A stretch of 32,849 bases of DNA. It comes from a virus (lineage: Duplodnaviria > Heunggongvirae > Uroviricota > Caudoviricetes). Numbering within the stretch: position 1 is the first letter of the stretch; each line of letters begins with the position of its first letter. This document shows, piece by piece, positions 4,407 through 15,965 of the stretch. Location: positions 1 through 32,849 of IMG/VR virus record IMGVR_UViG_2778261588_000008; one strand, 5' to 3'. The translations under genes were made by a program, and so were the position numbers. The notes beneath the pieces are model-generated. The model saw nothing but the letters and a program-made list of their open reading frames with translations. It was not told where the DNA came from and did no database searches.

Positions 4407-4610
4407 TTATTTATCTCCCATATGCTTTGCGCAAATACAGGTTGGCTATATGAAGATAAGAATCTCCATGTTGTGCAATGAGGCAGGCAGTTTTATACGA
4501 TGCCTTATTTTTCAGGAAAGCCATAACATAATCTCCTGCGAATAAAGGTTGCAACAATCCCCGGCGATAAAACCGTAATAAACATTCAGTGAATATTTAT
4601 TGTTATTGCG

Positions 4611-4802
4611 CTAATTCTTTTTGACTGCAGCTTTCGAATATTCACATGCAAAAGACAGGATTTCATCACCTAATGTTTTTGCATTCTGATTATTTGACAT
4701 CTGTAAAACTTGCGCAGCGCACAACAGACTATGAATGTTTATTGCAAATGAATCCGATGCCAGACAAATACCTTCGAAATTGTCATGGATATTACTATTC
4801 AC
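4611..4802 (-). CDS. small protein, stand-alone paralog of the N-terminal domain of the upstream HTH protein
   Basis: 63-aa ORF with GTG start at 4802 and AAGGAG SD 8 nt upstream that overlaps the stop of the 150-aa gene. Shares DSFA(L/I)NI..LL.A......K.LG.E...F..EY..AA with residues ~25-75 of the 150-aa protein. Confidence 0.5.
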   Translation of the reverse strand: MNSNIHDNFEGICLASDSFAINIHSLLCAAQVLQMSNNQNAKTLGDEILSFACEYSKAAVKKN

Positions 4803-4807
4803 TGCTG

Positions 4808-5260
4808 TTACTCCTTTGCAGCATTGCTACCAGTCAATAACCACATCGGATCGCAGCCAAGAATATTTGCCAGTGGGATAAGCATACTGATGGTTGGTTC
4901 ATACTCTCCGCTCTCCCACTGGATGATGATTTCTTCATCAAGAGCGAGCAGCCTGGCGAGTTCGGCTGTTGTTAAGCCGCAGGCTTCGCGTTGGGTGCGA
5001 AGGTTAACCAGCCAGCTTTCAGGGAAGGATTGTTTTTGTTGTGCAGGAGAAGCAGCAGATAGAGCATATTCATGGATAAATTCCATTACCTCAATGCCCA
5101 GTTCCTTTGAGCGAGCACAATCCAGAAGATGGAATGTGCGTACAGCACTTAGCAAATTTGCAATATTTAATGCAAAGGAATCAAGTTCTAAGCCCTTAAG
5201 CGTAACACAGCCGCAGTTGATAAAATTAGTTGTTTCTGGAGTTGCTTTTAGTGTCTTCAT
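4808..5260 (-). CDS. XRE-family HTH DNA-binding protein with N-terminal accessory domain
   Basis: 150 aa; C-terminal HTH_XRE-like segment (GLTTAELARLLALDEEIIIQWESGEYEPTISMLIPLANILG); first gene downstream of a strong leftward promoter; SD GGTGGA. Confidence 0.7.
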   Translation of the reverse strand: MKTLKATPETTNFINCGCVTLKGLELDSFALNIANLLSAVRTFHLLDCARSKELGIEVMEFIHEYALSAASPAQQKQSFPESWLVNLRTQREACGLTTAELARLLALDEEIIIQWESGEYEPTISMLIPLANILGCDPMWLLTGSNAAKE

Positions 5261-5313
5261 ATATCCACCAACAATTTTAAATTGAATTAAATCAAGTTAT
5301 AATTGATGGTGCG

Positions 5314-5342
5314 ATATTATGCTTTGGGAAATAGGCTGTCAA
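5314..5342 (-). promoter_or_regulatory. leftward early promoter (PL analog): TTGACA - 17 bp - TAATAT
   Basis: On minus strand: -35 TTGACA (5342-5337), 17-nt spacer, -10 TAATAT (5319-5314). A 17-bp near-palindrome ATCAAGTTATAATTGAT (5291-5307) sits at the predicted transcription start and is a candidate OL operator. Confidence 0.55.
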
Positions 5343-5372
5343 GAAAAAATTGATATCGTATATTTCAGGCAG

Positions 5373-5392
5373 AAAAAAACGGGCAAAGCCCG
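5373..5392 (-). terminator. intrinsic terminator downstream of cI
   Basis: On minus strand CGGGC-TTT-GCCCG hairpin followed by T7, 14 nt after the cI stop codon. Confidence 0.7.
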
Positions 5393-5405
5393 TTAAAATC
5401 AAAGA

Positions 5406-6095
5406 CTAACCAAATCTGTTTATGTTGAATGGTACTGATGAGATCACTTTAGACTGGATATAAAGCAGAGCTAACCCCTCTTTTTCGATGCTCCATGGTT
5501 GATAATTGGGGTTATCAGATAACACCATGATTTTGCTTCCAATTTTTTGAAGCCTTTTCACGTAGCATTCTCCATCAAAACAAAATGCATAAATACCATC
5601 GCCATCAAAATAAGTTACTGTCTTATCAAGAAAAAGAAGGTCGCCAGGTGAGATTGTGGGAGCCATACTGTCTCCTCTGGCGTTACCTATTTCTATATTT
5701 TTGAATGCCCGATTTCCAACAAGACGTCGGGCATATTCAGGATCAAGTTCTATTGAGCGCACTACATCTATCAAGTCACCACGGACATGAGTTCCATCAC
5801 CGCAACTAAACTCAACATCAAGGACATTAAACACGACGCTATCTGTTCTTGTCTGGTGTTTCTCTTGCGAGGAAAAGGTTGGTGAGGAGTCTTCACCTAA
5901 GAACCAGGATTGTGGATAACCGCTAATCTCTGATAAATGCGCGAGCTTATCACTCCGTGGAAATGTTTTTCCTGTTGTCCAGTACTGCACTGATTGCGCA
6001 CTCACACCTAACTTGCGGGCCAGTTGAGCCTGAGTCCATCCTTTTGCTTTCAGCATCGCGGCTATTCGATTTTCCGTGTTTTTGACGTTCTTCAT
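5406..6095 (-). CDS. cI: CI-type prophage repressor (N-terminal HTH + C-terminal S24/LexA-like autopeptidase)
   Basis: 229 aa; N-terminal HTH (GWTQAQLARKLGVSAQSVQYW); C-terminal G-D-S-M (Ser nucleophile) and downstream Lys in YVKRL, as in lambda CI/LexA; divergent from cro-like gene. Confidence 0.9.
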   Translation of the reverse strand: MKNVKNTENRIAAMLKAKGWTQAQLARKLGVSAQSVQYWTTGKTFPRSDKLAHLSEISGYPQSWFLGEDSSPTFSSQEKHQTRTDSVVFNVLDVEFSCGDGTHVRGDLIDVVRSIELDPEYARRLVGNRAFKNIEIGNARGDSMAPTISPGDLLFLDKTVTYFDGDGIYAFCFDGECYVKRLQKIGSKIMVLSDNPNYQPWSIEKEGLALLYIQSKVISSVPFNINRFG

Positions 6096-6228
6096 GACCA
6101 GGTCCTGTGGGTTTCTTTACAAGGATAAATCTTTACTTGATTTTAGTGTATTCGATCCTTTTGCAACTTGCATGTTAATTTAATCTTGATGTATTCTTGT
6201 GTTATCAAGTTAATATTGGTGTTTTGCT
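6096..6228. promoter_or_regulatory. divergent immunity control region (OR / PRM / PR analog)
   Basis: 133-bp intergenic region between divergent cI and cro. Repeated half-site CTTGAT/ATCAAG (6136-6141, 6185-6190, 6204-6209); 17-mer ATCAAGTTAATATTGGT (6204-6220) matches the OL 17-mer at 13/17; candidate PR TTGCAT-18-TATTCT. Confidence 0.5.
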
Positions 6229-7459: not shown

Positions 7460-7668
7460 TGCAAACCAAGACGTGTGTAACTGGTGATGTCGATCTGAAA
7501 CCTTGCCCGTTCTGCGGAAATCCGGAAGTACAACTCATTGAGGTGAAATATTTTCTGGATGGCGATGATGGTTATTACGTCGCATGTACTTGCTGTAACG
7601 CAAACCAGATCCCTGATTCGAAAGAACGTGCTGTTCATGACTGGAACCAGCGTGAAAACGCGGATTGA
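7459..7668 (+). CDS. lar: Lar-family restriction alleviation protein
   Basis: 69 aa; KPCPFCG...C.CC zinc-ribbon pattern and AVHDWNQR tail typical of Lar (Rac prophage restriction alleviation) family; start overlaps upstream stop (TAATG). Confidence 0.6.
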   Translation: MQTKTCVTGDVDLKPCPFCGNPEVQLIEVKYFLDGDDGYYVACTCCNANQIPDSKERAVHDWNQRENAD

Positions 7669-7793
7669 CGGCGAGTAGGTACAAAATGATCCGCAACCAA
7701 CATATTGATTCTGCACTTTTGGGACGTTACACTGTCTCTGCACCTTATAAAGCGGGGGCCGGGCGTGGAAACCCGAAATTCAATATAGAGCAC

Positions 7794-7815
7794 AACCGCG
7801 CTCATGCGGTTTTTT
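7794..7815 (+). terminator. candidate intrinsic terminator between lar and rha
   Basis: AACCGC-GCTCAT-GCGGTT hairpin followed by T-run (7810-7815). Confidence 0.35.
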
Positions 7816-7985
7816 CGTGTCATGAGCATCGTTACGCCCAAATTATGGTGGGGCGTGCAGGGCCAACTTCGGTTGGGCCGGGTTCTATGTTGACCGGTAT
7901 TTCCACCCCTGTACGTCTCACCACCTATATGGTCGTGGAAAGCCTTGGTGGTGAGTTCATTGAATTCAACATAGGGGCTGTCACC

Positions 7986-8537
7986 ATGACTACTCTCCCA
8001 ACCCTCTCTCAACCTGAAATCACGATTATCAATGGTCGTGTTGTCACCACATCTCTTGCAGTTTCTAATTACTTTACTAAACGGCATGAGCGGGTTTTAG
8101 ACAGAATTCGAAACCTCGAATGTTCCGCTGAATTTACTGAACACAATTTTGTGTTAAGTGAATACACCGACGCATCAGGCCGCAAACTTCCCTGCTACCA
8201 AATCACCCGCGACGGTTTTGCGTTTCTTGCCATGGGCTTCACTGGCAAACGTGCAGCCAGGTTCAAAGAGGCATACATCAACGCCTTTAACCAGATGGAG
8301 AAGAATTTATCTGGTGCTGACGCGGTTGATATGTCAGCTGTTGCACGAAACGCCAGAGGCGTATACCTGCATTTGCGTGAAATCCATCAAATCTGGAAAA
8401 GCCAGCTTTACCCCATGCTTAAGGCCGTTGAATCTCCGCTGGCGAGCAAGCTGTACGACCGTGTAGGTGATGCTGTTTTTGGTGCTGCACTTGTTGATTC
8501 CAGACTGAATGGTTCTGACAAGGAGGTGCGCCCATGA
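7986..8537 (+). CDS. rha: phage regulatory protein Rha
   Basis: 183 aa from ATG 7986 (AGGGG SD). N-terminus ITIINGRVVTTSLAVSNYFTKRHERVLDRIRNLEC...YQITRDGFAFLAMGFTGKRAARFKEAYINAFNQME matches the Rha family. The ORF-track upstream extension (TTG at 7665) is low-complexity and contains a terminator-like hairpin. Confidence 0.7.
   Translation: MTTLPTLSQPEITIINGRVVTTSLAVSNYFTKRHERVLDRIRNLECSAEFTEHNFVLSEYTDASGRKLPCYQITRDGFAFLAMGFTGKRAARFKEAYINAFNQMEKNLSGADAVDMSAVARNARGVYLHLREIHQIWKSQLYPMLKAVESPLASKLYDRVGDAVFGAALVDSRLNGSDKEVRP

Positions 8538-15890: not shown

Positions 15891-15965
<75 letters not shown>

Follow-up and report, generated by a model that had tools for sequence, protein, structure and literature searches.

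In Bacillus subtilis, the XRE helix-turn-helix (HTH) proteins SinR and SlrR each carry a two-helix oligomerisation element, and in each case an adjacent gene, encoding SinI or SlrA, supplies a small paralogue of that element. SinI acts on SinR by capping it, the precedent for a repressor paired with its own antagonist (PMC3163267). In bacteriophage lambda, the first gene downstream of the promoter pL encodes N, an arginine-rich RNA-binding antiterminator, and the early HTH regulator CII, encoded on the right arm, has its counterpart in CIII, a small helical protein to which it is not homologous. CIII is an early product of pL. Among eukaryotes, microProteins and Id-type HLH inhibitors are small proteins made up of nothing but the dimerisation module of a transcription factor, and they form non-productive heteromers.

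The stretch of DNA analysed here (the window, 32,849 nucleotides at its full length) encodes a 150-aa XRE HTH regulator with an N-terminal two-helix hairpin, followed by a gene for a 63-aa protein, S1, that is a free copy of that hairpin. Our best guess, by analogy, is that the pair is a variant of known regulatory logic in an uncharacterised family. Measured against the described systems, SinR/SinI is the closest in logic: a neighbouring small paralogue of the regulator's two-helix element, for which the models suggest a role in oligomerisation, is present, but the small protein does not belong by sequence to the Sin domain family. The hairpin is C-terminal in SinR and N-terminal in the window's regulator; its helices run to 19-24 residues, whereas the whole hook of SinR and SinI comprises ~37; and the small gene lies downstream and is co-transcribed, whereas SinI is separately regulated. 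The window's pair also belongs to a prophage pL operon of Enterobacterales, its interaction is predicted by analogy, and its free copy does not co-vary with the regulator. With lambda CII/CIII the pair shares an early HTH regulator, a small helical protein of the early pL operon and a PHROG label ('CII-like regulator'), but it matches neither Phage_CII nor Lambda_CIII, and no evidence of protease involvement was found for it. With lambda N it shares position only: the first pL gene here encodes an XRE HTH protein, not an N-type antiterminator, an Rfam search and inspection by eye gave no sign of a nut (boxA/boxB) site in the pL leader, and relatives of the module are found in Stx phage types that lack N, Eru7 among them. 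The HTH domain has the fold of P22 C2 and of the 434 repressor and Cro and is related to them in sequence, but those proteins lack the N-terminal hairpin and differ in their dimerisation elements. MicroProteins and Id proteins are unrelated and come from another kingdom, and are analogous in logic only.

The prophage and its leftward operon

The window is a lambdoid prophage of Escherichia coli, inserted next to mlrA/yehW and 100% identical to part of the E. coli UTAK-5 chromosome, with a gene order of int, xis, a short left operon, cI, a cro-like gene and the replication genes. The cI repressor (5406..6095, minus strand; type cI1) was recognised from domain matches to an HTH and an S24 peptidase, and an intrinsic terminator is predicted 3' of it and upstream of pL (5378..5394, minus strand). 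A promoter scan, read together with the sequence, places pL, a strong promoter, at 5314..5342 on the minus strand (TTGACA-17 nt-TAATAT). Around it stand copies of a 17-bp palindrome, ATCAA-N7-TTGAT, one on either side: OL1 (5291..5307), which lies past the -10 element and ahead of the start codon and is a perfect palindrome (ATCAAGTTATAATTGAT), and OL2 (5338..5354), which has one mismatch and overlaps the -35 hexamer. Three further copies, at 6125-6141, 6174-6190 and 6204-6220, make up the OR region (6125..6220) in the cI-cro interval. Six sites with at most one mismatch occur in the 32.8-kb window, four of them in the cI/pL/pR region. Since pL and pR share these operators, pL is repressor-controlled, with the genes for the 150-aa and 63-aa proteins as its first two, much as the earlier note had proposed in placing them first behind a strong leftward promoter. 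For the same reason both should be silent in the lysogen and first expressed after induction or infection, and their early co-expression from pL is to be expected from the promoter and operators.

The pL leader, put at ~45 nt in that note, comes to ~47 nt when counted from the -10 element to the ATG at 5260, with a deduced transcript start. No nut-like sequence had been noticed there, and a search of 5260-5310 at Rfam gathering thresholds likewise returned no RNA element; no GC-rich stem was seen by eye. Downstream of the 63-aa gene, the operon continues with a conserved 37-aa ORF of unknown function (MAFLKNKASYKTACLIAQHGDSYLHIANLYLRKAYGR; 4411..4524, minus strand). An Enterobacter prophage has a gene call that is clearly homologous to it (L172 3827-3943), and coding sequences of 114 nt are annotated at its position in Stx1_499 and PhiR49_2; the identical RefSeq genome carries no annotation there. 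Just 3' of the stop codon of the 63-aa gene, a near-perfect AT-rich palindrome (AATAAATATTCA-C-TGAATGTTTATT) occupies 4577-4601; it is kept in close relatives only, one of its arms is like hairpin-coding sequence, and it drew no terminator call.

Elsewhere in the prophage, Rfam gathering searches matched isrK at 7740-7816(+) (57.7 bits) and C4 antisense RNA at 7841-7928(+) (82.4 bits), both in the 5' part of a mechanical ORF (7665-8537(+)) that overlaps a gene called as a Rha family phage regulatory protein by PGAP. From its sequence, the region looks like P1 ImmI-type antisense control of an anti-repressor, here within the right operon of a phage that has cI and cro. A tRNA gene lies at 15891-15962(+) (Rfam, 65.6 bits).

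The hairpin in fused and free form

Both reading frames lie where the earlier note had placed them. The regulator (4808..5260, minus strand; 150 aa, ATG start), identified by PHROG, Pfam and AlphaFold2 (AF2) evidence, consists of a disordered segment (residues 1-22), a two-helix hairpin of the type we call A1 (residues 23-70; 5051..5194, minus strand), a linker (71-80) and an XRE HTH domain of five helices (81-143; coding region 4832..5020, minus strand). That the C-terminal part is an XRE-type HTH, as had been proposed, is borne out by a Pfam HTH_3 match at residues 87-141 (8.6e-10, 39 bits against a cut-off of 23), which places it in the XRE / Cro-C1 group. The only Pfam families matched are HTH_3, HTH_19, HTH_31, HTH_25 and HTH_26, and residues 1-80 have no Pfam match. 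Over its full length the regulator matches phrog_4836 at 8.4e-77, a family labelled 'CII-like regulator'; the label finds no backing in Pfam, where Phage_CII is not matched. AF2 predicts the hairpin helices at residues 23-45 and 49-70 with block-mean pLDDT of 75-87, a low-confidence linker and the five helices of the HTH. The latter matches P22 C2 and the 434 repressor in Foldseek (6e-4, TM-score ~0.9 on target) and PDB sequences in phmmer (1e-4), and fold searches with the 150-aa model returned matches through the HTH only. With a separate cI bearing an S24 domain next to it, the regulator is not the immunity repressor.

The HTH is near-invariant across related prophages (dN 0.004-0.06, dS 0.14-1.5, dN/dS ~0.05), and mosaic breakpoints flank it: homology to phiP27, which has a type-B hairpin, stops at 5002 (residue 86), and homology to PhiR49_2 starts on its other side, at 4829. 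Its near-invariance across phages of differing immunity means that the regulator's DNA target must be conserved. A search for such a target over ~2.5 kb of 13 representative loci found 11-mers common to at least 12 of them only in two HTH-coding segments. One of these segments (GAAGCCTGCGGCTT at 4974-4987, encoding EACGL in the HTH) holds a short inverted repeat, AAGCC-TGC-GGCTT. Many relatives of the regulator carry two HTH domains in one chain, a common form being of 230 aa, and the 150-aa form probably arose by deletion between two such HTH repeats, to judge from the aligned sequences. The idea that the 63-aa ORF is the broken-off C-terminus of these longer relatives was considered and rejected, their extra 80 residues being the second HTH.

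S1 (4611..4802, minus strand; 63 aa, GTG start; hairpin at residues 16-62) matches phrog_4587, a family of small phage proteins of unknown function, at 1.7e-29, its residues 3-62 covering positions 2-61 of the 66 in the profile. Its Shine-Dalgarno sequence AAGGAG (4811..4816, minus strand) lies within the last regulator codons, 8 nt upstream of the GTG, an overlap with the end of the upstream gene that had been noticed before. Both this motif and the start position are conserved in relatives, with ATG in Stx-phage versions where the window has GTG, and in free-form relatives the two genes are 5 nt apart or overlap; a ribosome-binding site inside the end of the regulator gene is a layout that would favour coupled translation. 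The regulator's C-terminus (MWLLTGSNAAKE) and the junction with the small gene (4808-4860(-)) match the second-HTH end of the 230-aa relatives (P0009, L005). Over 37 distinct nucleotide versions dN/dS is ~0.2 at a dS of ~1, and on these substitution patterns the ORF reads clearly as a real gene under purifying selection. Relatives measuring 60-80 aa come from E. coli, E. albertii, Salmonella, Citrobacter, Yokenella, Klebsiella aerogenes and Pantoea, and fused forms are known from Enterobacter as well; homologues are present in eight genera. The window's copy has one A fewer in an A-run (~4617-4625(-)) than its closest relatives (L008-L010), a 1-nt deletion that changes the C-terminus from KKELAQ to KKN, past the structured hairpin, and PGAP leaves S1 without annotation in the 100% identical UTAK-5 genome. 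S1 has no Pfam family at E<=0.1, SinI and Lambda_CIII included, and a 66-aa relative gave a single, spurious Pfam match at E<=1.

The homology between S1 and the regulator's N-terminus, which the earlier note had seen by eye, is significant. Residues 24-69 of the regulator align without gaps to residues 14-59 of S1 with 18 of 46 identical (39%; 34.7 bits), at E=1e-8 in one pairwise BLASTP comparison. Each protein also finds the other's family, regulator residues 24-72 matching phrog_4587 at 3.3e-7 and S1 matching phrog_4836 at 1.4e-3, and an HMM built from the small proteins only recovers every type-A N-domain (1e-10 to 4e-14; Z=71). Nine positions are invariant in S1 and type-A hairpins (S18, F19, A20, L26, A29, K42, G45, F51 and Y55); the shared positions are both apolar and polar, the polar set including S18, N22, K42, E47, E54 and Y55, and together they would form one surface. 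AF2 models S1 as helices 16-34 and 39-62 with a pLDDT of 95-97 in the core. Given two-helix models for both proteins, the shared unit is a helical hairpin of ~48 residues and not a ligand-sensing domain. The N-terminal domain first described as ~90 residues long and sensor-like is thus reduced to residues 23-70, preceded by ~22 low-confidence residues, and to a fold of the kind that builds oligomer interfaces. Profile comparison thus bore out the relationship, but structure searches added no significant hairpin neighbour: the S1 model had no significant match in PDB or BFVD fold searches, its top neighbours, likewise not significant, being a designed protein of two helices and the hairpin pair of a complex between two interacting proteins, and the hairpin profile found nothing credible among PDB sequences.

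The module in related prophages

Related loci were gathered in two ways, by way of the small protein (80 IMG/VR loci) and by way of the invariant HTH segment (80 loci), the latter set carrying no bias towards the small protein; some contigs are common to both. Pooled, they hold 87 distinct combinations of cI, regulator and small protein, mostly from E. coli prophages, so that the counts do not come from independent samples. A free hairpin gene follows the regulator in all 79 of the HTH-seeded loci with enough downstream sequence. In 64 of them it is S1, which stands free at 63-69 aa or makes up the C-terminal half of a 121-aa protein of the phiP27 L08 type, and in the other 15 it is S2, a different 63-aa protein (MKTPLNILEEVAAQIKEN...) that stands +189 nt after the regulator gene (L087-L098 and similar loci). 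As to the L08 form, the 121-aa ORF of phiP27-type phages (phiP27, L002 4304-4669) has the S1 hairpin for its C-terminal half, the two halves are separate overlapping genes in Pantoea (L170 3199-3608), and in E. coli JP538 the PGAP annotation covers only the 68-aa hairpin part. Further carriers of S2 are the phages phi467, Fraca and SaltyDalty, along with a Klebsiella phage. On sequence comparison, the S1 and regulator genes form a conserved and predictedly early module of N-less lambdoid prophages.

S2 is itself a paralogue of the type-D regulator hairpin (33% identity, E=3e-10), so the relationship between fused and free hairpins arose at least twice. The hairpin type of the regulator corresponds without exception to the type of the neighbouring cI (cI1 with A, cI2 with B, cI3 with E, cI4 with D, cI5 with C, cI6 with G and cI7 with F). 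The free hairpin keeps no such correspondence: S1 is found behind types A, B, C, D, E and G and S2 behind A3, E, F and G, a distribution by which co-variation of the free hairpin with that of the regulator was rejected. S1 is detectably related to types A, E and F only, with no relationship detected to B, C, D or G; two Stx phages, one with a type-A and one with a type-B regulator, encode almost identical S1 proteins; and the S1 subtype goes with the regulator gene's 3' end next to it, a matter of simple linkage. No free B-type hairpin was found in phage records, S2 never occurred with its own type D in the survey, and S1 is universal in type-B phages. The earlier note had suggested a decoy or titration arrangement; for the window's pair this may still be so, but because the hairpin types that S1 follows number at least six, and it has no detectable similarity to B, C, D or G among them, a decoy of the regulator's own N-domain is no general rule. 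Among these pairings, the window appears as one in which regulator and free hairpin happen to resemble each other.

More distant prophages repeat the arrangement. Yokenella has the order cI, hairpin-HTH and free hairpin, Pantoea has the same three genes with one more small gene between regulator and free hairpin, and in both the free hairpin, with the sequences read by eye, resembles that of its own regulator. In Enterobacter the order is cI, a hairpin with two HTH domains and an S2 fusion of 137 aa. One Salmonella locus (L168) has two free hairpins, with the HTH absent at that position. An exhaustive HMM search of 1.84 billion representative proteins returned 20 clusters at E<=0.001. In the 19 looked at (all but the weakest, a 1,495-aa protein) the hairpin is either a small protein by itself or fused N-terminally to an HTH, and these come from Enterobacterales wherever the source names the organism. 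GTDB species representatives contained no relative.

Part of the 1.4-kb region occurs in 295 of 5,426 complete E. coli genomes, and the module is found in Stx1a, Stx2a and Stx2d phages, including Stx2_14040, the reference phage of Eru7, the Stx phage type described as most widespread across Western Europe (PMC8951638). The genes that the two papers on Stx-phage regulatory regions (Eru) classify lie on the opposite side of cI, and neither paper refers to the present pair; a keyword search of the literature for such antagonists in prophages gave nothing relevant. Proteins named 'Clade VIII CI' in PMC8951638 have two HTH domains and no peptidase domain; they might be two-HTH members of the regulator family and not immunity repressors.

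A proposed interaction and its alternatives

A lone two-helix hairpin with broad hydrophobic faces would be unstable as a monomer, and would be expected to pair with a second hairpin into an intermolecular four-helix bundle. As such a hairpin should not be a stable monomer, the regulator would dimerise through it, bringing two HTH domains onto DNA. The free hairpin of S1 could then enter the regulator's bundle and yield a complex with one HTH, or one unable to assemble further, thereby tuning or antagonising the regulator as SinI does SinR; alternatively, S1 would be a subunit, in fixed ratio, of the active complex. That the hairpins build four-helix bundles, and that S1 enters one with the regulator in the manner of SinI with SinR, is the reading we favour, tentatively and with rather less than even confidence. 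Paralogy, a common predicted fold, the shared residues and the coupled gene layout speak for it, as do the presence of the module in 79 of 79 loci, its recurrence in Yokenella and Pantoea, the two origins of the fused-and-free pairing, the SinR/SinI precedent and, though short of significance, the nature of the top structural neighbours. Against it stand the lack of co-variation, with S1 kept under purifying selection beside unrelated hairpins, the two-HTH relatives, which would need no dimerisation and still keep the hairpin, and the Salmonella locus with its two free hairpins and no HTH.

Much of this counter-evidence would suit a small protein of independent function, S1 forming a homodimeric bundle directed at a different target in phage or host, its resemblance to the regulator being a matter of ancestry only and the hairpin a mobile module repeatedly fused to, or split from, an HTH in this part of the genome. 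Such independence would account for the maintenance of S1 (dN/dS ~0.2) beside regulators whose hairpins are unrelated in sequence, for the other fusions in which the hairpin is seen (the 121-aa L08 form and the 137-aa S2 fusion), for the free pair in L168 and for the interchange of S1 and S2 at one position. It sits poorly, however, with a hairpin-bearing regulator preceding the free hairpin in all surveyed E. coli phage loci, with the recurrence of the arrangement in Yokenella, Pantoea and Enterobacter prophages, with the coupled layout of the free forms and with the polar positions common to S1 and type-A hairpins, and we regard it as the main rival, possible though on the unlikely side. Those same polar positions could instead point to a common third partner for which the free copy competes, be it a host protease responsible for degrading the regulator, on the model of lambda CII/CIII/FtsH, or cI or Cro of the phage itself. 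The perfect correspondence of hairpin and cI over seven types, the 'CII-like regulator' label and the predicted early expression of both proteins from pL, like that of lambda CIII, would fit this decoy; yet the correspondence is explained equally well by adjacency, with ~150 bp between the genes and a breakpoint at the hairpin/HTH boundary, a decoy based on homology fails where S1 accompanies a regulator of type B, C, D or G, and neither Phage_CII nor Lambda_CIII is matched in Pfam, which together make a shared partner improbable. A bolder proposal, to which we attach a still smaller probability, is that the hairpins act as a code of specificity between lambdoid prophages resident in one cell: every immunity type would fit its particular hairpin to an HTH regulator that does not otherwise vary, and the free hairpins would be dominant-negative copies, mainly against the regulators of other immunity types. 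S1 (related to A, E and F) and S2 (related to D) would then sabotage, or insulate against, co-induced prophages, a suggestion that draws on the absence of S2 from type-D loci in the survey and the universality of S1 in type-B phages.

Two remaining readings are both highly improbable. If the small ORF were a non-functional relic of duplication, or not translated, its similarity to the regulator would be without consequence; its omission by PGAP from an identical genome, its GTG start and the 1-nt deletion near its 3' end could be so construed, but the strength of the phrog_4587 match, the low dN/dS at a dS of ~1, the conserved Shine-Dalgarno and start positions with ATG in relatives, the homologues in eight genera and a deletion that costs only the last residues past the hairpin leave this account very little room. 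Slightly less credible again is a toxin-antitoxin-like pair with the HTH protein as antitoxin or autoregulator, a form of which the earlier note had entertained. Its basis lies in weak, HTH-level matches to HipB and MqsA-type models, which fall far below the NCBIfam cut-offs (21.4 bits for couple_hipB, whose cut-off is 71.65, and 18.3 bits for the MqsA family, whose cut-off is 61.8), PADLOC matches are likewise at the level of the HTH, the partner is a 63-aa helical hairpin without a match to any toxin family or in PADLOC, and the genes sit inside a repressed early operon and not in an autonomous cassette.

The module takes the position of lambda N in a large group of N-less lambdoid prophages. 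It belongs to an uncharacterised family in which neither protein has a described function and the hairpin has no Pfam family or solved relative, and the contrast of its near-frozen HTH with hairpins that differ wholly from one immunity type to the next makes a clean example of modular evolution, which calls for an explanation. If, as we tentatively favour, the free hairpin controls the regulator, the pair would be a compact switch acting in the first minutes after induction of a toxin-carrying prophage and, if true, a Gram-negative, phage-borne counterpart of SinR/SinI.
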